Notes: a model not told the origin generated them from the letters alone. A DNA stretch of 64,000 nt from an uncultured Bacteroidales bacterium (GCA_902792895.1 CADBBK010000004.1:60464-124463), one strand, 5' to 3'; counted from the first letter of the stretch, positions 181 to 63,805 are shown. Numbers and translations: made by a program.

Positions 181-202
181 GAGACGCAAGATTTTGCGTC
201 TC
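181..202 (-). terminator. Hairpin downstream of the glycosyltransferase gene
   Basis: GAGACGCAA-gatt-TTGCGTCTC forms a 9-bp stem 36 nt past the stop codon at 238. There is no clear U-tract. Confidence 0.4.
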
Positions 203-237
203 TACATAGCGAATACATTGAGTATCAGTATGTTGTT

Positions 238-12702: not shown

Positions 12703-12725
12703 TGTTATTTGTCGTTTAGAGATTC

Positions 12726-22966: not shown

Positions 22967-25345
22967 TTACCAGATTACCATAATTGTGGCATGAGGCGTA
23001 CCTGAAATAGTCGGCTGTGCCCCATGGGCGCAATAGATATTGTATACACCTGTGGGTACCCTCTGACCATTCTCATTGCAAGCATCCCATAATGCACCAC
23101 CAGTTACTGGACCTAACTGCCTCACAATCACACCATTGCGATTAGCAATGGACACATAAGTATTATCCATCAGATTGGAAATCTTCACCATCCCAGTGAA
23201 ATCCGGCTCCACAGGATTGGGAAAGACGTACACATTATCGAAATTAAGGGAAGAACTACTTCCGATAGGTATATACTCTGCAAAGGCAACATCTGTTACA
23301 ATAAAGACCCGGTCGTTGAGGGTATCGCATTCCACACTATACACCAAGTCGCTGGGCAAGTCGCTATTACTTGTGGTAAAGTGAGCATGAACCTTGCAGC
23401 CATCGTGCGAAACATAGTAAACTCCATCATTGGTGGCTAACCACTTGTCATTGTGGCGGTCAACTCCAATATCAAATACCGAATAACCCTCGCATAAGAT
23501 TTCCTTGACTGACGAAGATGCCACAATTGGGCGTATAGCCCTAGGAACAGCGTCAAACACCACATCGGGATCAAACATGAACAAGCCCATAGTGTGTCCC
23601 ACCCAGATCATCCCATCTTTGTCCTCTTCCATGTGGTTCACATAATTCCAATCCACCCTCCTGCCATATTGGTCTGAGAATTGACTGATGCCCCTAATGC
23701 GATAGTTGTCATCTGTAACATCTTCACTGCCATTATCCCAGCACAAAAATTGTCCCATAGTCTTCCCAGCAGTTGGAAAATCACCATCATTGTATATTTT
23801 ATAGTTGTTTTTCTTAGAAATCACAAAACTTGAACGCTGCATATTGTGTGTGTTTAAGACAAGAAGACCACTGGGCTGAAACCAATCTGACTTTGAAGAA
23901 GTCGTCTTGGTCACTTTATCTTTGGGAAGGACAGCAACTGGACAGTCCAGCGGATGAGTTTCATCAGTATATGAACTAACCACCCACAAGTTGCCATAAT
24001 TATCAAATGCAGGGTGAGGTTTATAGTAACCAATAGGTGCTGTGTAGTTATAATAATATGTGGACTTGAGAACATCGTTCACCACCTTGTGAAGGCCTTT
24101 GTTCCAACTGGCACGGAAATACATTGTTGGGTCAAGAGGATTGAAAACGAACTCATAACCTGATCCCGATGCGCTGTATGCCGTTGCGTCAGCCCATTCA
24201 GAGCCGTCAAAGGTGTTGATGACATTCACGGTGCTGGCTGTAGCGGGACTCATCTTGTTAGGTGCAGAATTAGACACATAGAGTTTGTTTAAGAATGAGT
24301 TGAATTTTAACCAAAATGGCGCATCAGTAGTCATCAAGTTCAACTTGTAATTAACCGATGTGCCGTTGACGTGCAATCCGTTAGCATCATTAATCCAGAC
24401 GGTACCATCACCCAGGGGGTCAGATGTAGCAAAACAGGCTGTAGAAAAAGTCTTGGTGGCTGTAGTAGCCTCGGCATTAATAGTATAGCAGTAGGAATTG
24501 CCCTCAAAGTTGGCAAAAAAGCCCGTTGGCGTCTTCTGGATATTTGTGGCCTTGGCCGAAGAAATCAAGTTGGTCGATACGGGAGCACCGCTTGAGAAGT
24601 CATACTTGTAGAGCGAGGATAGCATGATGAACACCTGATGATCGTCGATGGGATACATCTTAGCTCCGTTAAAGGTACCACTTTTCTTGGCATAAGTGTG
24701 GATGGGGTCATTGACCTCGGGCTCGCCATAGTAGCACTGGTTGTTGGACAGGATGATCATCGTGTTGCCCACAACAGCTACCGAGTTAATGGTAATACTC
24801 ATGCCTAAATCATAACTTTTTATCACTCTCATCGTTGACTCTTCAATCACCACATAGCCATATCCGATAGTAACATATGCCTTTCCACCGGCAAAGGTTA
24901 TATCATTAATAAGTTTGCTAGTGTAGTCCTGTAATGCACCATAGTTGTCTTCTGACGTATTAAAAGTGTAATTGTGGACGACTGAAGTGATGTCCTTGAT
25001 GGCACTGATATTAGTTACCTTGCCTTCGGCATCAATCACATCAATAGCCGAAGAATAGTAAGCTACAAAGAGCAATCTATTCTCCCAATCATAGTAAATC
25101 TGCCTTATTCGATAATCAGTAAGGATATTCTGCTTGGTTAACTCTACGGTTTGACAGGTGGTCTTATCAAACTGGTACAGGCGGTAACAGTTTAAGTAAT
25201 AGACCTTATCCCCTGTGTCAAACACATTTTGAATCTGTTTGGCATCATAGCAAGGGTATATTTTCCATGTGCTGGAATGAGCCACAGCAACAGTCATCCC
25301 CAACAGAAGCACAAACAAAAAACACTTTTTAATCATTGCATTCAT
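22967..25345 (-). CDS. Secreted beta-propeller-like repeat protein with a T9SS type-A C-terminal sorting domain
   Basis: 792 aa with a signal peptide. The CTD reads VYVFPNPVEPDFTGMVKISNL...GVYNIYC...ATIMVIW. The gene is AT-rich. Confidence 0.8.
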   Translation of the reverse strand: MNAMIKKCFLFVLLLGMTVAVAHSSTWKIYPCYDAKQIQNVFDTGDKVYYLNCYRLYQFDKTTCQTVELTKQNILTDYRIRQIYYDWENRLLFVAYYSSAIDVIDAEGKVTNISAIKDITSVVHNYTFNTSEDNYGALQDYTSKLINDITFAGGKAYVTIGYGYVVIEESTMRVIKSYDLGMSITINSVAVVGNTMIILSNNQCYYGEPEVNDPIHTYAKKSGTFNGAKMYPIDDHQVFIMLSSLYKYDFSSGAPVSTNLISSAKATNIQKTPTGFFANFEGNSYCYTINAEATTATKTFSTACFATSDPLGDGTVWINDANGLHVNGTSVNYKLNLMTTDAPFWLKFNSFLNKLYVSNSAPNKMSPATASTVNVINTFDGSEWADATAYSASGSGYEFVFNPLDPTMYFRASWNKGLHKVVNDVLKSTYYYNYTAPIGYYKPHPAFDNYGNLWVVSSYTDETHPLDCPVAVLPKDKVTKTTSSKSDWFQPSGLLVLNTHNMQRSSFVISKKNNYKIYNDGDFPTAGKTMGQFLCWDNGSEDVTDDNYRIRGISQFSDQYGRRVDWNYVNHMEEDKDGMIWVGHTMGLFMFDPDVVFDAVPRAIRPIVASSSVKEILCEGYSVFDIGVDRHNDKWLATNDGVYYVSHDGCKVHAHFTTSNSDLPSDLVYSVECDTLNDRVFIVTDVAFAEYIPIGSSSSLNFDNVYVFPNPVEPDFTGMVKISNLMDNTYVSIANRNGVIVRQLGPVTGGALWDACNENGQRVPTGVYNIYCAHGAQPTISGTPHATIMVIW

Positions 25346-25663
25346 TTTGATAAAATTGCCATCTATTAAAAAACAAGGTTACTTGAGTTGTCTAAAAAAC
25401 TTGGCTCTGAAAGCTAATGAGTGCATATGCCTATTAGCATAATTATGTAATTGGATACGCGGTGCTATCGATTCGAGGTTCAATAACCAAGAAGAAAGGG
25501 GTGTGTCGTGGCTCCCGTTTGGGATTTCCTGGCGTCTCGGCATTGCGGACGCGGGAAAGGCCGATGGTGGAAGAATCATGGCACCCCCCTTTTCTCGGTG
25601 CGTTCTCTGGCAGATATGAACCTTTATTCAATTCATAGAGTTTAATAAATATGTTTTCTGCTT

Positions 25664-27196
25664 CTAGTGTGTCAGCAGATAGTCGATGAGTGCCGCCACG
25701 TCTGCTATGTCCACCTCACCGTCTCCGGAGATGTCTCCAGTATAGGAATAGCGGGCCTGACCAAGGAGCAGGCAGTCGATGAGCAGGGCCAGGTCATCAA
25801 CGGCAATTTCGCCGTCACCGTTCATGTCACCCGGAATTCCGTAGACCTTCTCGGGGTCGAAGCGCATACCCCTATAGATGATCTTACCGTCCTTGACCAC
25901 ATGGCTCAGGCCGCAGTACTCCTGATAATCGGCATCGGGATCAGGCTTGCGCGTGAACGGAGTCAGCAGGTCGCCCATGTCACGGCTGTCAAAGCCGATA
26001 CCCTCGACAATGTAGGCCTGCGGATTGCCGTCCTCATCAAGATAGGCAAAACGACTGCATTGCTCTCCATCAACGAGAATCGGTTCAATTTCAACGTAGT
26101 TCTCACGGGAGAAAATATCACCACCTTCATAATAGATGAAGTAATTGGGGGTATAGAGGTAATCAATATCTGAAGCAAGTACACCGTAACTATAAAGAGG
26201 CCATGAATCCATTGGTGCAAGTGGCTTATAGAACATGGATCTTCCCTCATTTATTACTTTTTCAAGTGGCTCGCAACTGGCGCTCTTATACTCCCTGCAA
26301 ATGGATTCGTAGCCAGTCAAAAAGGTTGCCACCTCTGTTACGTCCTGACTGTCCTCCATGTTCTTTCCTGTATAATAATAGCAGATCGGCCAACCACGCC
26401 AGTTCTCTCCCTTGAACTCATAGGTATAGTAAGAACAAGTAGTGTCCCCATTATGCACTGTGACTTTTTCATTGACCCATTGCACGCCTTCACGGATAAC
26501 AGGCACATATGAATCAGATGGATCAAATGTTTTGTGTATCTCAGAACTGTATATGACCTCACCGTTCTCAATCACATAGCTCAAGTTAATAATGCCAGGA
26601 TTGACAAATCCTGTACCATTACCAGGTTTGAAGTAAAGCGTAGAACATCTGCCCAACAAACCGTCATAGCCGATGCCCTCAATCAAACACAAATCGTAGG
26701 CATAACCAAAGATATAGCGCTTAACGGTTTCCCCTTTGATGGACGCTTTGTCATTAATCACATGGCTGAGATACGGTACATGTGAAAAGAAATCAGTATT
26801 CTTAAGATATGTCGCGAAATCGTTGAAATCATAGAGTACAAATTCCTGCCCACTCTCAATCAATTGGGTAATCGTCTCATCCCCATCTATCCCGACCGGG
26901 CAGTCTGTGTATGTCTTTCCGTCAGGGACAATGCCGTAAACAACTTTGTCTTCTTCGCGAAGATAGACTGGGATTGTGTCATTGACCATGTTAATGGCAG
27001 CACCGCTAAACTTGTGCATAGCCTTATAAGTTTTGCCCCCAATGACAACGTCACCTTTCAATTCAAGGGTAAAAGGACGGTAATTGTAGGTGCATACCCA
27101 TTGTACACCCTCGCGAACGAACGGGATGTACTCCTGGGCTACTGACTGGATCAGCCCCAATAGGGCCAACACACAGATTAAAAATATCTTTTTCAT
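25664..27196 (-). CDS. Secreted protein with a duplicated N-terminal module and a C-terminal type-I dockerin pair
   Basis: 510 aa with a signal peptide. The module starts are EYIPFVREGVQWV and SYVPVIREGVQWV. The dockerin EF-hand-like repeats are GDMNGDGEIAVDDLALLIDCLL and GDISGDGEVDIADVAALIDYLL. Confidence 0.8.
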   Translation of the reverse strand: MKKIFLICVLALLGLIQSVAQEYIPFVREGVQWVCTYNYRPFTLELKGDVVIGGKTYKAMHKFSGAAINMVNDTIPVYLREEDKVVYGIVPDGKTYTDCPVGIDGDETITQLIESGQEFVLYDFNDFATYLKNTDFFSHVPYLSHVINDKASIKGETVKRYIFGYAYDLCLIEGIGYDGLLGRCSTLYFKPGNGTGFVNPGIINLSYVIENGEVIYSSEIHKTFDPSDSYVPVIREGVQWVNEKVTVHNGDTTCSYYTYEFKGENWRGWPICYYYTGKNMEDSQDVTEVATFLTGYESICREYKSASCEPLEKVINEGRSMFYKPLAPMDSWPLYSYGVLASDIDYLYTPNYFIYYEGGDIFSRENYVEIEPILVDGEQCSRFAYLDEDGNPQAYIVEGIGFDSRDMGDLLTPFTRKPDPDADYQEYCGLSHVVKDGKIIYRGMRFDPEKVYGIPGDMNGDGEIAVDDLALLIDCLLLGQARYSYTGDISGDGEVDIADVAALIDYLLTH

Positions 27197-27504
27197 AATT
27201 ATAAAGTAAAATTGTTAATATTTTTGCTATCTACTAAAAAAGTGGATGTTTTTTCAAATAAACCCGGTTCACATAAATTATTGACCTCGATGATAATTAC
27301 AAAACTAATGACTCTATAATTCGTTGTAATTAACTGAATGTCAATGATTTCAAATAACTCTTGTTTTTGTGGACATATTGTTGGGAGAGTTAGGTCTAAA
27401 TAACTAAAAGTCCATCGCGACAAGGCTGTAAAGCACTGAAACAACAAGAAATGCTGTTTTATTGAAATACATGAGAGGCTTTTCCTCTCTGTATTTTGAA
27501 GATA

Positions 27505-27912
27505 CTACCTCTTGAACGGAGCTTCCATACCGCCAAGCGGCGTCAAATGGAACATATAGACGTATGTGTTGAAATATGTTGTTTTGATATAGACACAATA
27601 GTCATCCTCGCGTAATGACGATACACTTATCGTGTCATAAGTGCCATTTACTGTCGTCGATAGAACAACCCTCGATGTGGTCATCGACATAATCACTACA
27701 TGGTAATAATTTACCGCCCCTGTTCCGTTAATCACGATGACCTGACTGTTACTGTCATAACTTATGTCTGGTTCATCATAGGGTATGAACAGGTGGTGGT
27801 TGTCTGTGCCTTTATTATGCTCAATGTATATCTGGCCTTTTGAATCATCTGCTCCATACACATTGACAAACAGAAACGAAAACACACCTAATAATATAAT
27901 ACACCTTTTCAT
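27505..27912 (-). CDS. Small secreted beta-rich protein (DUF3244-like, tentative)
   Basis: 135 aa with a signal peptide and the alternating beta pattern VIVINGTGAVNYYHVVIMS...YCVYIKT. Confidence 0.6.
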   Translation of the reverse strand: MKRCIILLGVFSFLFVNVYGADDSKGQIYIEHNKGTDNHHLFIPYDEPDISYDSNSQVIVINGTGAVNYYHVVIMSMTTSRVVLSTTVNGTYDTISVSSLREDDYCVYIKTTYFNTYVYMFHLTPLGGMEAPFKR

Positions 27913-27937
27913 CAGATAATAGTTTAAAATTCCATTG

Positions 27938-27945
27938 CAAAATTA
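27938..27945 (-). promoter_or_regulatory. -7 promoter box TAATTTTG
   Basis: The reverse complement of CAAAATTA lies 26 nt upstream of the ATG at 27912. Confidence 0.5.
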
Positions 27946-28067
27946 GCTAGAAGGAATTATATGGCAAAAAAAATCGATTCACATTTTGAAGGTGTAATTA
28001 TTTGTCATTCAGAATGTTGCTAAAATATTTAGTTAATCCGTTATTTGAAACAAGAATATAAAACCAT

Positions 28068-29774
28068 TTAGAGGTCACCATTCATATATTTTTCAATAAA
28101 TTCCTCAAATTTGATGTCTAGGCCTAATTTCTCCTTTACCAATCGCCTCTTGTAATTGCTCACCGTCACTGCGCTCGTATAGTTCATGCACAGCTTGATG
28201 ATTTGTGGCGAAATTCCCGCACAAGACAAATAAAAGAGCTTGAGGTCGTCGCTGGTCAAATCCGGATATCGCTGCTCGACAAAAGTAGCAATTCCCTTGT
28301 ATTCACCATCAACCGACAGCTTCATTTTCTCCCAAAAAGAATCACTGAGCTTGATGTTCATGATTTCGTGCCGTTCATTCATGGACTTGAGAATGCTCGA
28401 TAACGGCACAATACGTTTGACCTTTCGTTCGTCACTGGATTTCACCCTAATGTCCTGGAACAACTCATTCAATGCCGAAAGCCTGTACCTTACCAGTTGG
28501 GAAACCGAGGTATCGTTGTCATTGTTACGCTGTTTCAATGACTCGATCTGCGACAATAATTCATTTTTGGTAGAGGTAATCTCATCACGGTAGTTGCTCA
28601 CCATGCGTTGTAGGCAATAAATGCCATAAAGCAACAACACAAGCAGTAAAAACGCACTGGACAAGACAATAGCCAGTATCTTATTTCTCTTCTGCAATGC
28701 TACATTATTCTTCGTCGTTACCGCTTGATCATGAGCTGCCTCAGCCTTAATCAGTTCTTTCTCCTTAGAGTTAGAAAGGATTTGATTTGCAATACCATAG
28801 GACTTACTATCAACATTGCTATCGTTGTCCTGATAGCCCTTTTCGGCTTGTTCTATTGCAGTTAACACATCATATCTACCCATCGAGTCAACCTGGTCAA
28901 CCGGTGGAGGGGTTATTTGGAAGATATGTTTTGCTGAGTCGATGAGTCCCAATTTGACGTAGGCGAGGGCGGCATAGGTATAAAACTGTGTTTCTTTACT
29001 CTTGTCTTTGCCTTCATTTAATACGCGCATCGCCAAGTCCTTGGCTCGCTGATAATCCTTTTTATACCAGTAACAGAATCCCGCGAGTTTGGACATATAG
29101 GTATATTGCTTTTCGGGTTTACTAATCTGAGCCAGCCTAATGGCAGTGGTTAAATAATACTCAGTGGAATCAGGATAAGTCACACCACATACCGCGCCAA
29201 GATTGCCGTAGCATGAGATAAGATATGAAGTGTCCTGCAGCATTTTATAATAATAGATAGCCTCCTTGAATCGCACAATTGCTGCACTGTCTTGAGATAA
29301 CTCGTGCTGATAGAGTGTGGCTATTCTCATTTTGCTGTAGGCCAAGTTATTGTAATCATTGGGGGCAGCGCTGATTTCAGCATTCTTGTAATAGTGTATC
29401 GCGCTATCAGGATATCCCAGTTCCTCCATGACTGCTCCCTTGAAAATATTGCATCGAGTGAGTTTTTCTTGCTCAGCAGGATGGGCACAATAATAAGCGA
29501 GGGCACGATTGATAGTGCTATCATTGGTGGCCACGATGTAACATTTATACTTGGCTTGGGTAAGCAGCAGGTCGCAGTAAGCACGGTCGCCATCGTTTAT
29601 CAGGCTATCAAGGCTGACTGCCTCGATAATTGCCAATGCGCTATCCGGATTATCCCGCATCAAACTGTCGGCTGTCTCAAGACGGCTGTCATAATGATAT
29701 GTGTCGTTACAGCCTGCAACTATCAATACAAGCATTAACGCTACCATCACTATAATTGCCATGATTACCCTCAT
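28068..29774 (-). CDS. Transmembrane one-component regulator: lipoprotein-type periplasmic TPR domain, TM, coiled coil and a degenerate LuxR-like HTH
   Basis: It has the lipobox IVAGC, TPR-like helices, the TM segment ILAIVLSSAFLLLVLLLYGIYCL, and a C-terminal LTSDDLKLFYLSCAGISPQIIKLCMNYTSAVTVSNYKRRLVKEKL. The track start at 29777 is TTG; the ATG is at 29774. Confidence 0.7.
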   Translation of the reverse strand: MRVIMAIIVMVALMLVLIVAGCNDTYHYDSRLETADSLMRDNPDSALAIIEAVSLDSLINDGDRAYCDLLLTQAKYKCYIVATNDSTINRALAYYCAHPAEQEKLTRCNIFKGAVMEELGYPDSAIHYYKNAEISAAPNDYNNLAYSKMRIATLYQHELSQDSAAIVRFKEAIYYYKMLQDTSYLISCYGNLGAVCGVTYPDSTEYYLTTAIRLAQISKPEKQYTYMSKLAGFCYWYKKDYQRAKDLAMRVLNEGKDKSKETQFYTYAALAYVKLGLIDSAKHIFQITPPPVDQVDSMGRYDVLTAIEQAEKGYQDNDSNVDSKSYGIANQILSNSKEKELIKAEAAHDQAVTTKNNVALQKRNKILAIVLSSAFLLLVLLLYGIYCLQRMVSNYRDEITSTKNELLSQIESLKQRNNDNDTSVSQLVRYRLSALNELFQDIRVKSSDERKVKRIVPLSSILKSMNERHEIMNIKLSDSFWEKMKLSVDGEYKGIATFVEQRYPDLTSDDLKLFYLSCAGISPQIIKLCMNYTSAVTVSNYKRRLVKEKLGLDIKFEEFIEKYMNGDL

Positions 29775-29979
29775 CAATATCTTCGATTAGTTTGTTTATT
29801 CTTTAAACGGAAATAACGACCTTTTATTACACTCATTTTTTATCTTTCTTAACAATCATTCAATCCCTTTGTTACACCTTTGGTATGAATTAAAAAAGGA
29901 ATAGAACAAATGCAATATTGACAACGGATTGATAGTTATTATAATTGGCACAATAAATGCAATAGGAGGTATTTGAGAT

Positions 29980-31443
29980 ATGAAAACGAAGTTGATCATT
30001 ATGATACTATCCACGTTACTCGCGCTCGAAAGCACAGCGCGCAACACCGGTGAGCGCATCGTTGTTGTCAGTGACAATCACTTGCTCAGTCCTGAGTTGA
30101 TTACCGCTGGCAGCGCCATCGAGCGTGCCCAAGCCTCTGACCTTAAGATGATGGTCCAGAGTGATGACATCATGTCGGCCCTCACCGACAGCATCATCAA
30201 CATCAAGCCCACACTTGTGCTGTTCACGGGTGACCTCACCCACAACGGTGAACGCTTGAGCCATGAGCGCATGGCCGAGCATTTGGGACGCATGGCAGAA
30301 CAGGGCATCCGGGCGCTAGTCATACCCGGCAACCACGACTGCAACAACCCTGGAGCCAAGCGATTTGACGGTGACAAGACACTTCCCACAGCCACCGTTA
30401 CTCGCGAGGAGTTTGCCCAGATTTACTGCGACTACGGCTACGGCAAGGACAGCCGTCGCGACCCCGCGTCACTGAGCTACTGCTGCGAGCCCAGCAAGGG
30501 ACTGGTCATCATTGCTATCGATAGCAATATGGACGAACTCAACACGCTCACCTCACGTGGCGACAGCACCAACAACTACTACAGTAGCGGTCGCATCAAG
30601 CCCGAAACGCTGCAGTGGGTCATCGACCAGGCGAGCAGTGCCCGTCAGCAGGGCAAACTGGTCATCGCCATGATGCACCATCACCTGATTCCGCACTTCG
30701 ACAAGGAGGACCGCCTGCTGACCAACTACATTATCAGCCAGCACAAGGATGTGGCCCGCCAACTCATGGAGGCTGGAGTCCACACCATCTTCACGGGGCA
30801 CCTGCACGTGACCGATGCTGCTACACTATACAATGACGAAGGCACCGACAGCATCGTCGAGGTGGCAACCGGCTCGGCCATCTGCTATCCGTTCGCACTG
30901 CGCATCGCGACACTGGACCGCCAGCACCGTTCGCTCGACATTGCCACCCGCTGGCTCACCTCCACCAACTCATGTCCGTCGTTGCGCGAAATGGGACGAC
31001 AGCGCATCATCAAGTCCACCCCTGGCGTGACAGCGCTGCTGTCGGGCAAAGCATGGAACAAACTGGGCGGACACATGGGCCAACTCAAGGCTATGCTCGA
31101 GGCCGGCGGTGGCAAGGTGAATCTACCCGAGACTCCGCAGCAGGCGACACAACTCGCCCTGCGCCATCTGAAGGAAGTGCTCTCGCGCACCCTGCTTGCC
31201 GTAGTCGAGGGTAACGAGCAGGAGAAGGATGTCGATGACATCATCGAGCAGGGCAAGCAGGGCATTCATGCGATGATTGAGGAAATTGCCCCTGACCAGG
31301 CCGATAACCTGTGGGAGTTCTTCCAGAGCAGCGCCTATCCCCAACTGGATCCTCTGGTGCGCAGCATCCTCGAGGACCGCAACGCCGTGGGCTCTCCCAC
31401 CGAGTCACACACCGACGACCTGCGACTCACCGTCAGATTATAA
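29980..31443 (+). CDS. Metallophosphoesterase (calcineurin-like) with a signal peptide and a helical C-terminal domain
   Basis: 487 aa, with VVVSDNHL, FTGDLTHNG, IPGNHD, MMHHHL and FTGHLH. Confidence 0.85.
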   Translation: MKTKLIIMILSTLLALESTARNTGERIVVVSDNHLLSPELITAGSAIERAQASDLKMMVQSDDIMSALTDSIINIKPTLVLFTGDLTHNGERLSHERMAEHLGRMAEQGIRALVIPGNHDCNNPGAKRFDGDKTLPTATVTREEFAQIYCDYGYGKDSRRDPASLSYCCEPSKGLVIIAIDSNMDELNTLTSRGDSTNNYYSSGRIKPETLQWVIDQASSARQQGKLVIAMMHHHLIPHFDKEDRLLTNYIISQHKDVARQLMEAGVHTIFTGHLHVTDAATLYNDEGTDSIVEVATGSAICYPFALRIATLDRQHRSLDIATRWLTSTNSCPSLREMGRQRIIKSTPGVTALLSGKAWNKLGGHMGQLKAMLEAGGGKVNLPETPQQATQLALRHLKEVLSRTLLAVVEGNEQEKDVDDIIEQGKQGIHAMIEEIAPDQADNLWEFFQSSAYPQLDPLVRSILEDRNAVGSPTESHTDDLRLTVRL

Positions 31444-55789: not shown

Positions 55790-55964
55790 GTCAAAACTTT
55801 TCAGTTGCCAATTGTTAGCCCTGCGTTTTCATCTCCGACCAATAATAAATAGTTTATGAGAGCCGTAGAAACCGAAAGTGCTAGCACTATCAACAAAAAC
55901 TTGTGTACTTTTACACCAATCGACTCAATAAGAAAGACAAGAAGAGGTACTTGAACATTAAGTC

Positions 55965-58900
55965 CTATCGGGTAGTATTAATTCCAGGGATGACCATATC
56001 GTCCTCACTCAACGCAAATTCGTAATAGTCGTCCAACAAGTTACTGAATTCATGCACAAGATCTCGAATATCGTATGAAGTGAATAATCTTATTTGGCCG
56101 CCCAAATACATTGAATCATTTGGAATCAATGATTTATTGGGATAAATCAAATGATATCTGAAATCGTCTCCCTTAAAAATATTAGCCAACCGCTCTCGAA
56201 GGTCAAAATTAGGATTCTGGATTAGCCATGATAATGCGTCTAAATCGTCTTGATTCATATCGGGTGAGGCATTTTCCAATGCGGCTCGTAAAATCTCTTG
56301 CCGCAGTTCCAAAACAGAATCCGAGGTACATTTGGCAGCCAAAAAGCATTCTATATTGAAAAGATGATTTGCTTTAGCCACATCTCCCCAAAAAGAAAGC
56401 ACAGCAGGCTTGAACTCACCCTTAGCCTTTTGGTAATAATAAAGAGCATTTTCTATTGCCATTTGTTTCAATGATGGCGCATCAGCGGCTATTTGCGCAT
56501 TGGAAACCATTCTTGTTATCATTTGGAACAAACAATACTGCCACCATATAAAATGAGTTGAGTCCATCATATGCTGATTAACATTAAAGTGGTCAATTGA
56601 ACAAAACGCGATCGGCCCAAATGGATGACCATGTGAAATAGCCTTTGCTGCTGACTCAAATGCCCCTTCATCATGCTTCGCCAAATTATAAAATATTGAT
56701 TTAAGTGAATATCCAAAAGGTACCTCACGGCAAACTTCATTAAATTGATGGAATTCTTGCTCATTTTTAATACCTTCAGCTGCATAACAACACAATTGCG
56801 CGAACTTACAACCTTTTTCTGCTGATTGTCGCATATAATTTAACCATTGAACACTGTCTGGGAGAACATATTTATTACCTTCCATCCGCTGCAATGCGCT
56901 GACAAATTCCTTGTTAAAGCCACCATGTGGACGAGCCGACTGGAGCGCATTGAGCGCGTTTGTACTATCACCAATGGCAATGTACTCAAACACAATAGGC
57001 GGGATGTACCGATAGCCCTTGTACACTCCCATTTTCTCGTATAGGCCGATGGCTCTTTTATGGTCCTTTTGCCGTAAAGCGGAATATAATAGAGCAGGCT
57101 CATATCCCTGAAGTTCTGCCTCATACAGTTCATTGTTCAGTGTGTCACCCTCATTCACTTTCACCAACCCTTTTTGGAACAAAGCGGCCAAGCGTACCCG
57201 TTCGCTATCAAGTTGCCCTGGATGCTTTTCACATTGTTTGATGGCTTCATCATAATAGCACTTAGCGCTGTCTTTCATGTTAAGATCAGCATAAAGCTTT
57301 CCTAGCTGAAGCGAGGCTCTAGGATAACCTTGGCGACTGGCCACTCGAAAACAGTGAACGGCTTTTGGAAAGTGAACATCTAACCAAACTTCTGACTTGT
57401 TCACAACCTCTCCATCGCGCCAATCGGTGTAGTCATGTGAACTAATGTGGCCCAAATAATAGTACGCATCGACATCACCATAATAAGCAGCTTTAAGCAG
57501 CAAGTTATAGCCTTCTTTCATGTTTTTCTCTTGTCCCCAACCATAAAACCTCTGTAATCCAGCGATTCGATTTAGAATAGGGCAAGTGTCACCATACTGC
57601 TTATTATATACTTCTATTAGACTTCCAAGTCCAGAATAATCTTTTGACGCCAGGAGCACTTCGGCTGCTATGAGGCAGCCCTCGGGGTAGCGTTTCACGT
57701 CGCTTAGCGGTTTGGCATATTTCATGGCCTCCTTCAGGCTGTCGGCGACAAACTGATAGTAGTAGGTGGCCAGTTGCTTGAGGGTGGCCTCGTCGGTCAA
57801 GTGGCCCTGCCCTTTCAGGTAGGCAACAGTTACAGCGTTTTCGTTTGGCTCATGCCGGGCAAAGTCATACTTTTTCACAAAGGACTCGTAGGTCAAGGCG
57901 GGCGTCAGCAGATAAGCGCCTGCGGTGAAGGCGCATGTCAGTAACGCCATTCCTGCGGGTAGCCACCGTTTCCACACGGGCTTCTTTTCTTTCCACATTC
58001 GGCGCAAATAAGTCCCAGTGAAAACGGCTATTCCCAAAAGGGCCACAGTAGTGACAATATAAGCCCATTGATGTGTTAACCACTGCAGGCTCAAGTCTTT
58101 CAGCCCATGCCAAAGGCAAGCCCCAACAGCAATCACCAAAGCACCGATAAGCAAGCCCCAATAAGTGTTATTCTTTTGAGTTTCCTTGCGCGTTCGCTCA
58201 TCCTCTTGATTATTTAGAATCATTGTCTGAGTGCGCTTAATCTGCTCGTGGTCCTCATGCAGAGTTGCCTGATTGTTAAGTGTTTTTGCTAATATTTCAT
58301 ACTGAGGTCCTAAAATCCCAGCTAAGTCTTTATTCCTTTCTTCTTGGCCTTTTTGAAGGGCTTGGGATATTTCATTGAGTAATCCGCTGATGTACTCTAG
58401 GCTACTATTCTGATGCTCTTGTTGTTCAATGGTTTTTTCAAGGAGGCCATAGATTTTGGGGACGTCTTCGGTATTTCGACTGATGTCACGAAGTTCCACT
58501 ACAGCTTTTTCAAAGGCATCCATTGCTTGATGGAATGATGCTCTGTGGGCATCATTGTCCACCTGTGGGTCAATGGAAAAGGTTCTAACTTTATCATCCA
58601 CCTTTGATGCTGATGGTTCCAAATCGTTGCAAGTCAAGCTGAATTCAGCGGATTTACCCTCAATTTCAAGTTTATAATTTTGATACCATCTCACGTTAAA
58701 ATAGGTACGACCGTCTTCGGTTGATTGGGGGGTAAGTTCCTTCTTGTTCTTTAAAAGCTTGATTTCACTATACGATCCATCAATATACATTTTTATCTCG
58801 GGGATATTGTATGGAGCATTCTGGAACTGAGCTTTCCTGATGAGCAGTACTGTGGCTATATAAGTGAAGAGAATGTAGCGGTACACAAGATATCCCTCAG

Positions 58901-59510
58901 CCTGATCAAAAAATTGTCCAGAATGGGTGGATTGATTGCGAATATCTTTGGCAACACGCAAGAACGGCACAAAGAGACCGTATCTATATGTCAAAAACGC
59001 CATAATCGGGCCGTTAATCATTCTGGAATATTCTAGGTCATTACTGCTGTAATCACTATAACCATATTCCTTTGCCCCGTAATGCTTCTGTTGATATTTA
59101 GTAGCCTCTAGTGGTCTGCGTTCCAGCAAATCCCAAAAGTGATAGCATATAACCCTCACAATTCTGTCCTCAACCAAATCATCCATGTCTGCAATTGTGC
59201 CATAGCCGGCTGGGTCTTTGAGATATTTAAGGATATGAGTAACATCTTGTAAAGCGGTTCCAGCATTCTCCATCATATCAAAAAACTCCTCAACTGCCGC
59301 TACAGCCCTCTGCGGATTGACATGAAGTTCCATATAAGGCGGATTATCCCCATCGTATAACTGAAAATTGCATCTCTCATTGATAGCTGCAATCCTATAC
59401 GACATATAGTTTTTGCAAGGTTCTAGGCTAGGGTTGTCTAAGAACATCAAGAAATCACCGAAATGATATCGGTAAAAGTCTCGTTTCAAGGCTTGGATAT
59501 CGTCACTCAT
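55965..59510 (-). CDS. Orphan 1181-aa membrane protein: HEPN-like N-domain (RNQSTH), beta module, coiled coil, 3 TM helices and a large Sel1-like repeat domain
   Basis: I trimmed the start to the ATG at 59510 (MSDDIQ...), because the track start at 59540 is TTG inside the -7 box. The R-N-x3-H motif is at nt 58923-58940. The TM block is at about nt 57894-58163. Sel1-like units include LLLKAAYYGDVDAYYYLGHI, FRVASRQGYPRASLQLGKLYA and MRQSAEKGCKFAQL. The gene is AT-rich. Confidence 0.75.
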   Translation of the reverse strand: MSDDIQALKRDFYRYHFGDFLMFLDNPSLEPCKNYMSYRIAAINERCNFQLYDGDNPPYMELHVNPQRAVAAVEEFFDMMENAGTALQDVTHILKYLKDPAGYGTIADMDDLVEDRIVRVICYHFWDLLERRPLEATKYQQKHYGAKEYGYSDYSSNDLEYSRMINGPIMAFLTYRYGLFVPFLRVAKDIRNQSTHSGQFFDQAEGYLVYRYILFTYIATVLLIRKAQFQNAPYNIPEIKMYIDGSYSEIKLLKNKKELTPQSTEDGRTYFNVRWYQNYKLEIEGKSAEFSLTCNDLEPSASKVDDKVRTFSIDPQVDNDAHRASFHQAMDAFEKAVVELRDISRNTEDVPKIYGLLEKTIEQQEHQNSSLEYISGLLNEISQALQKGQEERNKDLAGILGPQYEILAKTLNNQATLHEDHEQIKRTQTMILNNQEDERTRKETQKNNTYWGLLIGALVIAVGACLWHGLKDLSLQWLTHQWAYIVTTVALLGIAVFTGTYLRRMWKEKKPVWKRWLPAGMALLTCAFTAGAYLLTPALTYESFVKKYDFARHEPNENAVTVAYLKGQGHLTDEATLKQLATYYYQFVADSLKEAMKYAKPLSDVKRYPEGCLIAAEVLLASKDYSGLGSLIEVYNKQYGDTCPILNRIAGLQRFYGWGQEKNMKEGYNLLLKAAYYGDVDAYYYLGHISSHDYTDWRDGEVVNKSEVWLDVHFPKAVHCFRVASRQGYPRASLQLGKLYADLNMKDSAKCYYDEAIKQCEKHPGQLDSERVRLAALFQKGLVKVNEGDTLNNELYEAELQGYEPALLYSALRQKDHKRAIGLYEKMGVYKGYRYIPPIVFEYIAIGDSTNALNALQSARPHGGFNKEFVSALQRMEGNKYVLPDSVQWLNYMRQSAEKGCKFAQLCCYAAEGIKNEQEFHQFNEVCREVPFGYSLKSIFYNLAKHDEGAFESAAKAISHGHPFGPIAFCSIDHFNVNQHMMDSTHFIWWQYCLFQMITRMVSNAQIAADAPSLKQMAIENALYYYQKAKGEFKPAVLSFWGDVAKANHLFNIECFLAAKCTSDSVLELRQEILRAALENASPDMNQDDLDALSWLIQNPNFDLRERLANIFKGDDFRYHLIYPNKSLIPNDSMYLGGQIRLFTSYDIRDLVHEFSNLLDDYYEFALSEDDMVIPGINTTR

Positions 59511-59537
59511 ATCAGAAAGATTAAAAGATTGATATTG

Positions 59538-59545
59538 CAAAGATA
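59538..59545 (-). promoter_or_regulatory. -7 promoter box TATCTTTG for the orphan giant gene
   Basis: The reverse complement of CAAAGATA lies 28 nt upstream of the ATG at 59510. Confidence 0.5.
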
Positions 59546-59562
59546 GTCATTTTTTAATAACT

Positions 59563-59604
59563 CTCTCGTCTGCCAGTCATGCGATTTTGCCTGGCAGACG
59601 AGAG
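59563..59604 (-). terminator. 14-bp-stem hairpin after the M64 peptidase gene
   Basis: CTCTCGTCTGCCAG-14 nt-CTGGCAGACGAGAG lies 12 nt past the stop at 59616. There is no U-tract. Confidence 0.5.
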
Positions 59605-59615
59605 AACATTACCCA

Positions 59616-60680
59616 TTATTTCCAGACGATGCAATGGTGATGATGCATTTCCTGGTCTTGACGGGCGGGAGCGGACTTGCGCTTCGGGTTGGTCGGCTTG
59701 TTGGCTGACTGCCAGTCCCACTCCTTGTCGGGATAGGCAAGGTCCTCGCGCTTGAACTCCGAGTAAAGGGGCTCAACACCTGTGTGGCATTTCATCACCT
59801 GCTGATAGATGAGGTAGCGGCTGACGGCATTATAATCGGGTCGGTTGTGGGTTCTCATCACGCTGTTCTCGGTTGAACGATACACCCCGCTGGCATACAG
59901 TCCTCCACCCTCATACACGCCTGTTCCCTCATGCTGGTAATCGACATCTTCAATGATGCGTTTCCAATACACATTGGTTGCATCGAGCGAAACGTTGAGG
60001 AAGAAACCAGCTTTCTGCCAACCCTTCATTTTCTTGATCTCTTTTGCCGGAATAGGGGTATTGTATTCAACGTACTCATCTTCCAACTGGCCAATGGCGT
60101 GGCCCAATTCATGGATTACCGCGGTGATAAAACAGTAATCATTAGCCGCACACACCGCAACCGGCATATAGTCCGCTGCTGTTGACATCCAGGTACAGCC
60201 GATGTATGCATCGGTGTTGACAATGACAAGCACCACGTCGTTGCCAGCGGGAGACTTCAGCCACTTGATGGCCTTGTTGATGGAATCATTGTTTAACGCG
60301 AGGACTCGGTCATCGGGCACGCCACATCCAAGGGCGGTCCGGCCACTGCCCAACTCATTGGACTGCGATACACACGCCGTCGAGTAGGATACGGTGATGC
60401 GGTCCAGCATGTAACAGTAGGGCTTGACATTCTGCAGCATGTTGTAGACCTTAGCTACATCTTGCTTGAAGTTCTCCATGTCCTCGGTGCGATAGGCCTC
60501 GGGGAGGATGATGAGGTTGAGATCTTGCCAATGAGCCTCGTTAATCACCACTCGCGAATTGTCCTTGTCGGTGATGATGTCCGTGGAGATATACTCGCCT
60601 GCGCATGAGGTGAGCGACAAGATTGCGACAGTGATCATGGCGATCAGGTACACGACACTTTTGTAAATCGGATTTTTCAT
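59616..60680 (-). CDS. M64-family (IgA-peptidase-like) zinc metallopeptidase lipoprotein
   Basis: 354 aa, with the lipobox LSLTSC and the motif VIHELGHAIGQLEDEY. This matches the M64 HExxH...L.DEY signature as I recall it. Confidence 0.8.
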   Translation of the reverse strand: MKNPIYKSVVYLIAMITVAILSLTSCAGEYISTDIITDKDNSRVVINEAHWQDLNLIILPEAYRTEDMENFKQDVAKVYNMLQNVKPYCYMLDRITVSYSTACVSQSNELGSGRTALGCGVPDDRVLALNNDSINKAIKWLKSPAGNDVVLVIVNTDAYIGCTWMSTAADYMPVAVCAANDYCFITAVIHELGHAIGQLEDEYVEYNTPIPAKEIKKMKGWQKAGFFLNVSLDATNVYWKRIIEDVDYQHEGTGVYEGGGLYASGVYRSTENSVMRTHNRPDYNAVSRYLIYQQVMKCHTGVEPLYSEFKREDLAYPDKEWDWQSANKPTNPKRKSAPARQDQEMHHHHCIVWK

Positions 60681-60952
60681 AGCTGTTGGTTAATTAATGG
60701 TTGATAATAATGGTTGTTATAAAGGTGTTTGATTAGAAAAGCCTTTTCATCGGTAATATCTTTTCTTCGGTATGGTTTGGTTTGCTTTTATCAGGTTAAT
60801 TTTGGCATTTGATGTTAAGCAACTTTTGTGCCAAGTTGGCAATCCTGACTGATATTTTTCAAGATATTTTCAGGAAACGATTTAGAAGCCAGCTCTGAAT
60901 TCCTTTAATGCTAATTTCGCTAATGAAAATAATTCCACGAAAAATATAGATA

Positions 60953-61182
60953 ACCGGTTGGCGGTATTAATTGTAGAGTGTACGCGAAAATGCCTAGGTG
61001 ACTATGGCAAAAACGCCCAAAGGGCGGTCATTTGAGTAACCGTGGGTAATGCAAACCGCTGAGCGATAGCGAAGTGGTTTGCATCACCCACGGAAAGTGC
61101 AATACTATCCTCGTCGCTGGAAGCGACCCCATTGATCTAGCCCATGTTGAAGGGGTCGCCTTCAGTAATTCCGCCAACGGGT
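60953..61182. mobile_element. MITE-like structured element, short variant (230 bp), copy 2, with a 7-bp target-site duplication
   Basis: The TIRs are ACCGGTTGGCGGTATT (60953-60968) and AATTCCGCCAACGGGT (61167-61182). A perfect direct repeat ATAGATA lies at 60946-60952 and 61183-61189. There is no ORF and the interior is a chain of hairpins. Confidence 0.8.
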
Positions 61183-61320
61183 ATAGATATATTCGCGAAA
61201 TTGGCATTAGCCCCGCAGGGTCTGAGTCCACCACAATATCTTGCTTCGCAGCTTTGCGTGATGCAAGTTGATGGATGGCGACATTCTCCCGACAGATTTG
61301 TCGATGAATGATAAAATGAT

Positions 61321-61328
61321 TAACTTTG
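61321..61328 (+). promoter_or_regulatory. -7 promoter box TAACTTTG for yifB
   Basis: It lies 29 nt upstream of the ATG at 61357. Confidence 0.5.
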
Positions 61329-61356
61329 CCAAAACAATTATAACGACTGAACGATT

Positions 61357-62904
61357 ATGTTAGCGAGGACGATAGGAGCTGCTGTGCATGGCATCGATGC
61401 CATCAAAGTCGAAATCGAGGTGACCGTCGACTGGGGGTCTGGATTCATGGTCATCGGACTGCCCGACACCGCCGTCAAGGAGAGCGCCGAGCGTGTGCGG
61501 TGCGCCATCCAGCAGGCGGGGATAGAGTTCCCGGGCAAGAAAGTCATGGTCAACATGTCGCCTGCCGACATCAAGAAGGAGGGCTCGGCCTATGACCTGC
61601 CGCTCGCCATCGGCATCCTCGCCGGCGACGAGAAGGTCAACCCCGACCGCTTGGGACGCTACATGCTCATGGGCGAACTTTCGCTCGACGGCACCCTGCG
61701 CCCCATCAAGGGAGCCCTGCCCATGGCCATCCTAGCGCGCCAGCTGCAGCTCGACGGTTTCATCCTGCCGCGCGCCAACGCTCTCGAGGCTGCCGTGGTC
61801 AACAACCTCAACATCTACGGGGTGGACAACTTTACCGAGGTCGTCAACTTCCTCAACGGCGAGACCTCCCTCGAGCCCACCGTGGTCGATACCCGCGCCG
61901 AGTTCGCCAAGGCACAGGGCACCTTCCCCTATGATTTCGCCGACGTCAAGGGACAAGAGAATGTCAAACGCGCCTTTGAGATCGCCTGTGCGGGTGGACA
62001 CAACATCCTGCTGGTGGGCAGCCCCGGATCAGGCAAATCCATGATGGCCAAGCGGCTGCCGTCCATCATGCCGCCGCTCACCCTGAGCGAGGCCCTCGAG
62101 ACCACCAAGATCCATAGTGTGGCCGGCAAACTGCCCCAAGGCACCACGCTGATGACCGTGCGTCCCTTCCGCAGCCCGCACCACACCATCTCGCCCGTCG
62201 CCCTCGTCGGGGGCGGCAGCTATCCCATGCCGGGCGAAATCTCCCTCGCCCATAACGGCGTCCTCTTCCTGGACGAGTTGCCTGAATTCAATCGCTCCGT
62301 TCTGGAGGTGATGCGCCAGCCGCTGGAAGACAGGATAATAAGTATCAGTAGGGCGAAATATTCGACCGAATACCCTGCCTCGTTTATGCTCGTGGCGAGC
62401 ATGAATCCGTGCCCGTGCGGGTACTATGGGCATCCCAAGAAGAAATGCGTCTGCAACGAGTACCAACGTACGCATTATATGAGCAAGATTTCGGGCCCGC
62501 TGCTCGACCGCATCGACCTGCAGATCGAGGTCCAGCCCGTCGATTTCGACCAGATGTCAAGTAAGGCCCCCGGCGAACCCTCTGCCGCCATCCGCCAGCG
62601 CGTCATCGCCGCGAGGATGCTGCAGGAGCGCCGCTTCAAGGATGAACCCGGCATCCACTGCAACGCCCAGATGATCCCCTCCCTGCTCCACAAATACGCC
62701 GAGCCCAACGCCGCCGGTCTGGAGAAGTTGAAGGACGCCATGGAGCGCATGAACATGAGCGCCCGCGCCTACGACCGCATCCTCAAAGTCGCCCGCACCA
62801 TTGCCGACCTCGAGGGCACCGCCGACGTCCTCGACCACCACATCATGGAAGCCATCGCCTACCGCAACCTCGACCGCCCCACCTACCTCGGCATCACAAT
62901 CTGA
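61357..62904 (+). CDS. yifB: YifB/ComM-family Mg-chelatase-like AAA+ ATPase
   Basis: 515 aa, with an N-terminal Lon-protease-like domain, the Walker A motif GSPGSGKS and GVLFLDELPEF. Confidence 0.92.
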   Translation: MLARTIGAAVHGIDAIKVEIEVTVDWGSGFMVIGLPDTAVKESAERVRCAIQQAGIEFPGKKVMVNMSPADIKKEGSAYDLPLAIGILAGDEKVNPDRLGRYMLMGELSLDGTLRPIKGALPMAILARQLQLDGFILPRANALEAAVVNNLNIYGVDNFTEVVNFLNGETSLEPTVVDTRAEFAKAQGTFPYDFADVKGQENVKRAFEIACAGGHNILLVGSPGSGKSMMAKRLPSIMPPLTLSEALETTKIHSVAGKLPQGTTLMTVRPFRSPHHTISPVALVGGGSYPMPGEISLAHNGVLFLDELPEFNRSVLEVMRQPLEDRIISISRAKYSTEYPASFMLVASMNPCPCGYYGHPKKKCVCNEYQRTHYMSKISGPLLDRIDLQIEVQPVDFDQMSSKAPGEPSAAIRQRVIAARMLQERRFKDEPGIHCNAQMIPSLLHKYAEPNAAGLEKLKDAMERMNMSARAYDRILKVARTIADLEGTADVLDHHIMEAIAYRNLDRPTYLGITI

Positions 62905-62947: not shown

Positions 62948-63805
62948 TTATCTAAATGCTTCGTTGATTGACGAATAATCATCAAAGCGGTTCAAGTGAA
63001 TCTCTAGTTCAGAAGGTTGTTTGTAATCATACGAACTCTCGATATTATCCTCTTCATAAACACAACGTATTTTGATCTTCGAGCCATCGTAGGTAAATCT
63101 ATTCATAGCTGCAGAGCCCATATGTGCCCACCATTGAAGAACGTAATCGCCACCACGATAATAACTGGAATGACTGCTACCGTCTTCATAAATCTTTGAG
63201 GCAACACCGTCTTTCAAGGTATAGACATACAGCATGAAATCTGCCTCACAGGTTCCGGCTTTCACCCACAATTCAGGCACACCATCACGAGTGATGTCAT
63301 AGAGGAAATAGCCATACCAACCGTACTCATCTACACCAAACTTCCTAAGATAACCCTTAAGGATATTGATATAAGCTTGACGATTTTTCTCGATGAGTTC
63401 CTGTTGAATCACCTTCTCCATAGAGTCACGGCGGGCTTGCTCACGCAGTTCTGCGGCGGCGATGGAATCTTGGCGGGCTTTTTCAGCCAGTATGGCTATC
63501 TGACGTTCCTGCTCGGCAAGCTGCTGATTGTTGTCATACCACAGCCAAGCGCCAACGCCCAAAAAGGCAAGCAGCCCCAGAACGGCGGTAATTATCAGTC
63601 CAGCATGGCTTTTGCGCTCGGACTCCTCATAATACTCAACAGGCTCATACGTAACAACTCTGTTGGGCTCCGTCTCTTGATTATGGTTTAATGATGATTC
63701 GTCATTTACAGTTTGCTCAAAGTCAACAAGTGTACCGCAGTGCGGACAAGCTTTCGCCTTGTCCGAAATCATCTTTCCGCAATTCTTACAAGTTATCAGT
63801 GCCAT
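62948..63805 (-). CDS. Hypothetical membrane protein: N-terminal zinc ribbon, TM, coiled coil and an uncharacterised C-domain
   Basis: 285 aa and AT-rich. It has CKNCGKMISDKAKACPHCG, the TM segment GLIITAVLGLLAFLGVGAWLW and the charged helix QERQIAILAEKARQDS. Confidence 0.65.
   Translation of the reverse strand: MALITCKNCGKMISDKAKACPHCGTLVDFEQTVNDESSLNHNQETEPNRVVTYEPVEYYEESERKSHAGLIITAVLGLLAFLGVGAWLWYDNNQQLAEQERQIAILAEKARQDSIAAAELREQARRDSMEKVIQQELIEKNRQAYINILKGYLRKFGVDEYGWYGYFLYDITRDGVPELWVKAGTCEADFMLYVYTLKDGVASKIYEDGSSHSSYYRGGDYVLQWWAHMGSAAMNRFTYDGSKIKIRCVYEEDNIESSYDYKQPSELEIHLNRFDDYSSINEAFR

Follow-up and report, generated by a model that had tools for sequence, protein, structure and literature searches.

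In a stretch of 64,000 nucleotides (nt) from an uncultured Bacteroidales bacterium (GCA_902792895.1 CADBBK010000004.1:60464-124463), below called the window, we analyzed a gene located at 55965..59510 on the minus strand and coding for a membrane protein of 1181 amino acids (aa). The best explanation of its features is that the product is an accessory inner-membrane protein made of two exchangeable halves. The cytoplasmic half (aa 1-~400) would consist of a HEPN-like domain, a β-sandwich and the first part of a helical stalk, while the outer half would consist of the rest of the stalk, three transmembrane (TM) helices and a helical ectodomain of ~640 aa with a Sel1-repeat block. As to its role, we put the protein forward as an unproven candidate for a transmembrane sensor-effector of the defence or abortive-infection type, a reading which we consider possible and somewhat short of probable.

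Among strains of one species the gene is present, absent or swapped by halves. The features that define the site are as follows (coordinates are counted from the first letter of the window).

55965..59510, minus strand: coding sequence of the 1181-aa membrane protein, with ATG at 59510 and the stop codon at 55965-55967
55791..59611: strain-variable segment of 3,821 bp (hairpin, promoter, gene and 3' tail); six contigs have an unrelated filler of ~315 bp instead
59616..60680, minus strand: gene of a Peptidase_M64 lipoprotein (LTSC lipobox, HELGH; Pfam M64 E = 4e-19)

The flanks of the site were 97-98% identical between contigs with the segment and the six contigs with the filler. The order of elements is M64, the 3,821-bp segment and a symporter gene at a filled site, and M64, the ~315-bp filler and the symporter gene at an empty one; all the compared contigs carry an identical symporter protein. 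The window protein was found unchanged on 9 public contigs. Judging by sample names and by the Prevotella labels of related loci, the organism is probably a Prevotellaceae of the rumen or gut. A third state of the site is represented by P0002 at locus L002 (P numbers denote proteins of the family and L numbers loci). The 162 bp upstream of it are 98% identical to those in the window, and on the 3' side it leads into the same symporter start. The nucleotide identity of the window and L002 alleles was 96-99% in the promoter region and 78-90% across most of the N-terminal module (N-module), but about 50%, the random level, between nt ~58,300 (in the stalk, at aa ~400) and the promoter of the symporter gene. 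Since identity drops to ~50% at nt ~58,300, the effector-like half was kept and the membrane/outer half was exchanged, with the recombination breakpoint at about nt 58,300 in the stalk. The exchanged part includes the TM segments (three versus one).

The N-module is under purifying selection: between the two alleles the ratio of nonsynonymous to synonymous divergence (dN/dS) was 0.16 at a dS of 0.61. The flanking genes had a dS of only 0.04, and because the value for the N-module is far above it, the alleles must be old or imported lineages. The protein P0001 (L001) is 98% identical to the window protein, with a patch at aa ~286-330 (58521-58655) that equals the P0002 allele; this points to P0001 being a mosaic of both alleles and to recombination between them. 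Such a pattern of presence, absence and half-swapping is typical of conflict-driven diversification and argues against a housekeeping role.

The filler (L019, 7646-7960) opens with a strong hairpin of its own (-32 kcal/mol). Within it, 48 nt show 81-85% identity to window 181-228 and may represent a small dispersed repeat.

An original prediction, made from the sequence of the window, had divided the protein into five parts: a helical N-domain with a HEPN-like motif, a β-rich part, a coiled coil, three hydrophobic helices and a C-terminal domain with Sel1-like units. This architecture holds. Residues are numbered here from the ATG, so that R191 and H196 are R201 and H206 in the numbering of that prediction. 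The AlphaFold2 (AF2) model that we used was built with 14 family sequences and had a pLDDT (predicted local confidence) of 78 and a pTM (predicted global confidence) of 0.83; an earlier model from 4 close sequences, with a pLDDT of 48, was set aside. The parts of the protein, all coded on the minus strand, are listed below.

58815..59510, minus strand: helical N-domain, aa 1-232, cytoplasmic and HEPN-like (AF2 helices, conserved blocks, weak HEPN-family matches)
59154..59171, minus strand: E114-D115-x-I-x-[R/K]119, acidic-x3-basic, a candidate HEPN helix-2 motif at the start of predicted helix 116-128
58923..58940, minus strand: R191-N192-Q-S-T-H196, Rx4H motif recognized by conservation, at the C-terminal end of AF2 helix 178-197
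58575..58799, minus strand: cytoplasmic β-sandwich, aa 238-312 (AF2 strands, pLDDT about 90)
58170..58535, minus strand: charged helical stalk, aa 326-447, a probable coiled coil (composition, heptad count)
58101..58157, minus strand: TM1, aa 452-470 (Kyte-Doolittle 2.03; N-flank +4, C-flank +1)
58005..58061, minus strand: TM2, aa 484-502 (Kyte-Doolittle 1.75; C-flank +7, loop RRMWKEKKPVWKR)
57906..57962, minus strand: TM3, aa 517-535 (Kyte-Doolittle 1.58)
55968..57905, minus strand: extracytoplasmic "type-A" domain, aa 536-1181 (end-to-end homology in P0006, P0007, P0010, P0011 and P0013)
57291..57623, minus strand: Sel1-like repeat block, aa ~630-740 (family profile compared with Sel1-repeat proteins of the PDB)

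In the AF2 model helices extend up to aa 228 and are followed by the β-sandwich at aa 239-312, in line with the predicted succession of a helical and a β-rich part. The best Foldseek matches of the sandwich were small Ig-like or NTE-type β-sandwiches, none of them significant. The stalk (aa ~326-447) is charged and helix-compatible, and 15 of its 27 hydrophobic residues fall in one heptad register; this much of the predicted coiled coil stood, and the coiled coil as such is probable.

The three hydrophobic helices appeared as distinct peaks of the hydropathy scan, with the strongly basic loop RRMWKEKKPVWKR separating TM2 from TM3. The equivalents of TM3 in P0006, P0007, P0011 and P0013 had Kyte-Doolittle values of 2.1-2.6. 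Every family member has either one or three TM segments, always with K/R-rich flanks on the N-side, and an N-terminal signal peptide is absent. Because of the odd TM count and the K/R-rich N-side flanks, the N-module is always cytoplasmic and the C-domain faces outward, just as the N-in/C-out topology of the original prediction had it.

We also considered helix 203-228 as a TM segment and rejected it. Its hydrophobic run, as read from the alignment, is only ~11-13 residues long family-wide and is flanked by charges; AF2 packs the helix in the bundle with a pLDDT of about 90; and the positive-inside pattern locates the stalk in the cytoplasm.

Conservation of the N-domain is seen in the blocks LKxxFY, (S)VEEFFDI, EDxIx[RK]xIxxYFW, RNxxxH and LFTYxxTVLLLRK. 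In the family alignment R191 and N192 are invariant (14/14), and none of the 15 family proteins lacks H196, though P0014 has an Rx5H spacing. Thus both the position of RNQSTH given in the original prediction and the conservation of its R and H were borne out. The second motif, in helix 116-128, is nearly as well kept (E114 in 13/14, D115 in 12/14, R/K119 in 13/14). AF2 closes helix 178-197 with RNxxxH, followed by loop 198-202 and the hydrophobic helix 203-228. The only stretch of variable length is that from W126 to F183 (46-91 aa), between helices 116-128 and 178-197, while the other spacings are steady (33-42 aa from F77 to E114 and 18-20 aa from H196 to L214). The published HEPN core combines Rx4-6H, a polar N, D or H directly after the R, and an acidic residue in helix 2, typically within Ex3[KR] (PMC3710099). 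The family shows the Rx4-6H spacing, the polar residue after R, the placement of this motif at the end of a predicted helix with a loop and another helix behind it, and the length-variable insert of that description. D115 and R/K119 form a D-x3-[KR] pattern, a candidate for the helix-2 feature.

Profile searches gave weak matches to HEPN families. The best of them were Abi_2 against residues 190-251 of P0011, RNNQAHH included (E = 0.0047, 14.4 bits, cut-off 25.6), AbiD of PADLOC (E = 0.0037) and a PHROG annotated as an abortive-infection protein (E = 0.011). Family members matched 15 Pfam families below threshold, three of which are HEPN (Abi_2, DUF3644 and DUF4145). With the 57-63-aa motif core as a query four families were returned, and two of the four were HEPN (DUF3644 and DUF4145). 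The E values of these two families, below threshold as well, were 0.008 and 0.018. Searches of the PDB with motif-core profiles matched only a PD-L2 transmembrane helix, and tblastn of the motif core against plasmids had no match. On this evidence the N-domain is probably homologous to HEPN, and R191, N192 and H196, perhaps with E114/D115, would make up a putative metal-independent RNase site.

Six proteins share the type-A ectodomain over its whole length, with 25-36% identity over about 610 aa and conserved blocks LGxxYADLxxxDSA, YxGxRYxxP, RPxGxF, GCxxAxxxC, IPFA and FWxDxAxxNH. The family profile matched the Sel1-repeat protein 6ork_A with E = 1.1e-11, though only over aa ~630-740; 6onw, 4bwr and 8sxq were also matched. 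On its own the window protein reached 10.8 bits with Pfam Sel1, compared to a cut-off of 30.7, while P0006 exceeded this cut-off at the equivalent site (32.1 bits). About 2-3 Sel1 repeats are recognizable, and one Sel1-like unit has a conserved Cys pair, C901/C908, with i/i+7 spacing. The other ~500 residues of the ectodomain had no match to anything known. Therefore, "Sel1 domain" is a partial description: the repeat block of the original prediction stood, the ~640 residues of Sel1 repeats did not.

The family is small. The window protein had nothing above threshold in Pfam, NCBIfam and PADLOC. Among 5.8 billion clusters a word-indexed search picked up three relatives, and an exhaustive HMMER profile search with the N-module in 1.84 billion representatives found 12 clusters, nearly all of 1,044-1,245 aa, and reached no annotated family. 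A profile search for related loci gave one genome locus. The N-terminal ~330-420 residues are common to all members, and beyond them there are two types. Type A, with three TM segments and the C-domain of the window protein, comprises the window protein, P0001, P0006, P0007, P0011 and P0013; P0010 has one TM segment with a type-A-like domain. Type B has one TM segment and an unrelated TPR-like C-domain.

A sister family of ~1,200-aa Prevotella proteins without TM segments has an N-module of the same composition, HEPN-like plus β-sandwich (hhalign 90.3%, E = 1.5e-6, 223 columns), and RNxxxH is present in 7/7. Because these TM-less proteins keep the motif, the N-module would have a function independent of the membrane. 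We considered this branch as a bridge to an annotated family; it is likewise unannotated, as none of the twelve relatives found for it carries an annotation.

The gene neighbourhoods of the relatives are of defence-island character, as can be seen from the following loci.

L005 (P0006): within a Type I restriction-modification (R-M) locus (HsdM, HsdS ... HsdR), with a WYL-like gene, tandem tiny paralogs, AAA518, and 324-aa and 244-aa proteins
L006 (P0011): two TIR proteins, WYL/WCX, tiny open reading frames (ORFs), AAA518 and a 244-aa protein, with comM 3' fragments at the bounds
L004 (Prevotella metagenome-assembled genome): WYL, a 228-aa lipoprotein, AAA516 and a 239-aa protein, then a comM 3' fragment
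P0007 contig: WYL, tiny ORFs, a 228-aa protein and AAA518
L008 (P0013): two large AAA proteins, a TerB-like protein, an M64-like lipoprotein and a second lipoprotein
L026 (P0009): AAA949 and HD; a convergent pair of M64 and a sister-family gene, WYL and a VapE-like gene
L026, 8705-12343, minus strand: the TM-less sister gene, directly downstream of an M64 lipoprotein gene (12441-13553, minus strand)
L029 (P0005): WYL, AAA562, HD, DUF87 and Patatin

With R-M, TIR, WYL, AAA and HD genes nearby, these loci support an accessory, defence-type character, and the relatives are not core-genome scaffolds. The recurrent AAA partners include some of AAA_lid_6 type, and in PADLOC they had only generic AAA matches (DolB, IetA, TRIP13). 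Lipoprotein genes adjoin the members in L004 (228 aa), L008 (282 aa) and L009 (178 aa). At the window locus the only gene linked to the large protein is that of the upstream M64 lipoprotein metallopeptidase. The M64 pairing was observed in L001, L003, L008 and L026, where the M64 proteins are 30-75% identical; it spans three diverged lineages, with 30-40% M64 identity between lineages. The window has no homolog of AAA518, the 244-aa protein or WYL. The suggestion of a "single-gene" system is thus doubtful, given M64 as a recurrent neighbour, AAA genes beside nearly all the other members and, in many cases, WYL or HD genes as well.

Several minor partners recur in these loci. The HD protein of about 200 aa is 51-60% identical between L009 (5678-6262), L026 (3350-3934) and L029 (8057-8680). 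The tandem tiny paralogs are four or five ORFs of 46-81 aa between the WYL and AAA genes (L005 6290-7584, L006 6997-8264, L007 1138-2405), with a motif like EPGTSYT or ASYTRD. The 239-244-aa protein downstream of the large gene (L005 14106-14840, L006 13718-14452, L004 13063-13782) resembles the N-terminal ~190 residues of AAA518 (E = 2e-10) and belongs to no Pfam family.

How such a protein might work can be outlined as follows. The ectodomain would detect an event on the envelope side, for instance a phage attack, or a partner such as the M64 lipoprotein peptidase. The stalk and TM helices would relay the signal and re-orient the two HEPN-like domains of a dimer, and this re-orientation would complete a composite RNase site. 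The RNase would then cleave cellular or phage RNA, growth would stop, and an anti-phage role could follow. In its most specific form, which we regard as on the unlikely side, the protein would be a bacterial counterpart of Ire1 by analogy, that is, an outside-in immune receptor in a single polypeptide, with a cytoplasmic HEPN RNase and an exchangeable Sel1-type ectodomain, shuffled between strains, that would respond to phage attack, envelope damage or the action of an M64 peptidase.

A number of results weigh against the sensor-effector reading. Around the motif the pLDDT is only about 60, and no HEPN family profile reached its curated threshold. Foldseek with the pLDDT-78 model against PDB and BFVD gave 0 matches at E <= 1e-3; among the top 50 in either database there were no HEPN entries, and the helical part matched nothing. 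With no HEPN structure from Foldseek, the HEPN assignment of the original prediction is carried by the motif, the topology and the weak profile evidence, and the fold search neither confirmed the fold nor excluded it. No homolog was found in 2.9 million viral contigs, and PADLOC-DB v2 gave 0 families for the window protein and P0006. The AAA, WYL and HD partners of nearly all the other members are missing beside the window copy, which could be a reduced or differently wired version. The M64 gene persists in strains without the large gene, so the link to M64 is not obligatory, and the idea that M64 acts on the ectodomain is weakened because the TM-less sister family also pairs with M64. No phage-related trigger is known. 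Finally, as the original prediction had noted for ORFs, no antitoxin or immunity ORF was found at the locus. The same is true of an RNA antitoxin of the ToxI/AbiF kind: Rfam gathering scores were not reached, and the flanks have no tandem or direct repeats. The missing element would be a problem for a constitutively active RNase. On the other hand, it fits a protein that is inactive until triggered, rather than a toxin-antitoxin pair.

The signal could also run in the opposite direction. The protein would then act on the membrane as an effector, and its HEPN-fold domain would be no nuclease: the N-module would take a cytoplasmic signal from AAA or HD partners, and the outer half would form a pore, depolarise the membrane or block phage entry. 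The partners beside nearly all other members are indeed cytoplasmic (AAA, HD, WYL), and the swapped part takes in the TM segments; effector modules are commonly exchanged in defence systems. There is also a precedent in Csx28 (bioRxiv 10.1101/2021.11.02.466367). Still, we consider this inside-out scheme unlikely. R, N and H are strictly invariant, which suggests a part in catalysis or in ligand contact and more than packing alone, while the motif of Csx28 is divergent; a 600-aa Sel1/TPR-type ectodomain resembles a binding module, not a pore; and the motif is kept in the sister family, which has no TM segments at all. Alternatively, the R-N-x3-H motif may be part of a novel helical domain that has no relation to HEPN; the architecture of the protein and its accessory nature would then be all that is established. 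The Foldseek result, the empty PDB sequence and profile searches, the sub-threshold level of every HEPN-family match and the failure of the exhaustive HMMER search to reach an annotated family all speak for it. It looks improbable to us, since four independent positional features fit the published HEPN description (PMC3710099) and the weak matches are concentrated on HEPN beyond chance (3/15 families, and 2/4 with the core alone).

The pairing with M64 in three diverged lineages raises yet another explanation, an envelope housekeeping or signalling protein with no immune role. As a scaffold or regulator that spans the membrane and is linked to the M64 peptidase, it would control, for example, surface or periplasmic proteolysis or host interaction, and its N-domain would serve in regulation or binding. 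Sel1 and TPR domains are well known as adaptors between proteins, lipoprotein genes adjoin several members (L004, L008, L009), and no PADLOC model matches. However, the gene is dispensable and polymorphic within the species while M64 stays, and the extreme rarity of the family (12 clusters in 1.84e9 representatives) is unlike that of housekeeping factors. Moreover, the relatives are set in R-M, TIR and WYL contexts, and the TM-less sister branch pairs with M64 too. We find a housekeeping role quite unlikely, and the candidate sensor-effector remains the reading that we compare with known systems below.

The original prediction knew of no system of this architecture. Precedents exist: the 2013 survey of HEPN proteins describes a Firmicutes DUF4145-type HEPN fused to Sel1, ZnR, TM and SH3, as well as an operon that pairs AbiU2 with a Sel1 protein, and further HEPN-TM fusions (PMC3710099). 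The likeness lies in the combination of HEPN, TM segments and Sel1 in one polypeptide or one operon, and DUF4145 was among the weak matches to the motif core. The Firmicutes cases differ in phylum, in HEPN family and in the ZnR/SH3 domains, and the survey gives them as a table entry with neither mechanism nor experiment.

The motif has a likeness in Abi_2 (Abi2/AbiD/AbiF), where RN-x2-[small]-H is also followed by one more helix; Abi_2, AbiD of PADLOC and the Abi PHROG were the best weak matches. The Abi_2 group is often embedded in R-M operons (PMC3710099), as P0006 lies inside an R-M locus, and is present in Prevotellaceae (PMC13064643). Abi_2 proteins, though, are soluble, have one or two HEPN domains and are restrained by an upstream noncoding RNA (type III toxin-antitoxin). 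The window protein has 1181 aa with a β-sandwich, stalk, TM helices and ectodomain; its family's Abi_2 score is below the Pfam cut-off, and searches of the window locus with Rfam and for repeats found no upstream noncoding RNA or repeat array.

In Ire1, a eukaryotic analogue, a sensor domain outside is joined through a single membrane pass to a HEPN-type RNase in the cytosol, which becomes active when the protein dimerises or oligomerises. Together with RNase L it may serve as a functional model for the window protein, a resemblance in function only and not one of family membership. The KEN domain has been classed as HEPN (PMC3710099). Unlike Ire1 and RNase L, the window protein is bacterial, has a Sel1-type ectodomain and no detectable homology outside the motif, and no Pfam kinase family matched it at E <= 1, either as a kinase or a pseudokinase.

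Csx28, an accessory of type VI-B CRISPR, combines a TM helix with a HEPN-like bundle of four helices and forms a pore (bioRxiv 10.1101/2021.11.02.466367). Like the window protein, it is membrane-anchored with a HEPN-like domain, and it is itself linked to defence. It is, however, small, with an N-terminal TM helix, a divergent motif and an octameric pore without a nuclease arrangement, while the HEPN-like domain of the window protein is N-terminal, its motif is canonical and invariant, and it has a 640-aa ectodomain. The resemblance of that ectodomain to Sel1-like repeat proteins (6ork, 6onw, 4bwr) covers aa ~630-740 and does not extend to the other ~500 residues. The C901/C908 pair resembles the disulfide-bonded Sel1-like repeat units of Helicobacter Hcp proteins.

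While the general idea of HEPN joined to TM and Sel1 is not unprecedented, four things appear to be new: the N-module of a HEPN-like domain and a β-sandwich; the membrane architecture of ~1,100-1,250 aa with exchangeable outer halves; the partner set of the family; and its clean within-species polymorphism. None of the four has a Pfam, NCBIfam or PADLOC model or a name in the sources. To our knowledge, nearly all bacterial immune sensors characterised so far recognise phage components within the cell. An envelope-side receptor driving a cytoplasmic RNase, if confirmed, would follow a different logic of infection sensing and would give prokaryotes a direct counterpart of Ire1 and RNase L. The 3.8-kb segment, whether present, absent or half-swapped, is the only difference between conspecific strains, which should make phenotypes easy to test. 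An invariant RNxxxH module occurs in both membrane-anchored and soluble ~1,200-aa Prevotella proteins with recurrent AAA, HD, WYL and M64 partners, and the family could join the catalogues of defence systems, in which gut and rumen Bacteroidota are poorly covered.

The start of the gene and the signals upstream of it were essentially as the original prediction had described them. Two more features belong here.

59562..59605, minus strand: hairpin, a probable M64 terminator, directly after the M64 stop codon
59538..59545, minus strand: match to the -7 promoter element by sequence, TATCTTTG, which fits TAnnTTTG

The ORF at 55965..59540 (minus strand) is the longest of the window, in agreement with the claim of the longest gene, and counts 1191 aa from TTG or 1181 aa from ATG 59510. 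We take ATG 59510 as the real start because all relatives open with MSDD or MSND there and because TTG 59540 lies inside the -7 box. The box TATCTTTG is located 28 nt 5' of the ATG and is retained in relatives, as TATCTTTG in L002 and TATATTTG in L003; TAnnTTTG is the Bacteroidota -7 promoter consensus. The hairpin has arms of 18 nt each (59562-59579 and 59588-59605), 94% complementary, and a folding energy of -32.2 kcal/mol. In L003, whose protein is a relative of 53% identity, the stem sequence differs yet pairs (-24 kcal/mol), and by eye the changes appear compensatory. The gene is AT-rich, as claimed: its GC content was 0.39-0.45, compared to 0.59-0.62 in the flanking symporter and ribH genes. 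For the strain-variable segment 55791-59611 it was 0.424, and for the whole window 0.525. A "1103-aa" variant in L018 was considered as a lesion and rejected as a gene-calling difference, its 5' end being identical over the aligned stretch, including the alternative start.

Some further observations concern the surroundings. The comM gene (Mg-chelatase/YifB; window 61357-62904, plus strand; also L011 963-1454) looks like a hotspot of integration or variation. In L004 and L006 an AAA-type cassette is bounded by comM 3' halves, each with a new TM-like N-terminus (L004 14281-15048; L006 4857-5720 and 14558-14872), and in other strains RhuM, FRG or arrays of Zn-ribbon proteins stand beside comM. 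An AT-rich gene at 62948-63805 (minus strand, GC 0.41-0.44) codes for a 285-aa protein with a zinc ribbon and TM; in L011 it belongs to a tandem array of six or seven proteins of this kind downstream of comM, one of them with a Sel1 repeat. In the 676-bp intergenic region between M64 and comM (60681-61356) there are a number of long inverted repeats, one of them pairing 61040-61060 with 61073-61093 (21 nt, 90% complementary), and no Rfam gathering score was reached. Farther away, at 24000-30000, the window has a second AT-rich island (GC about 0.40, compared to 0.55-0.6 around it) with three large minus-strand ORFs.

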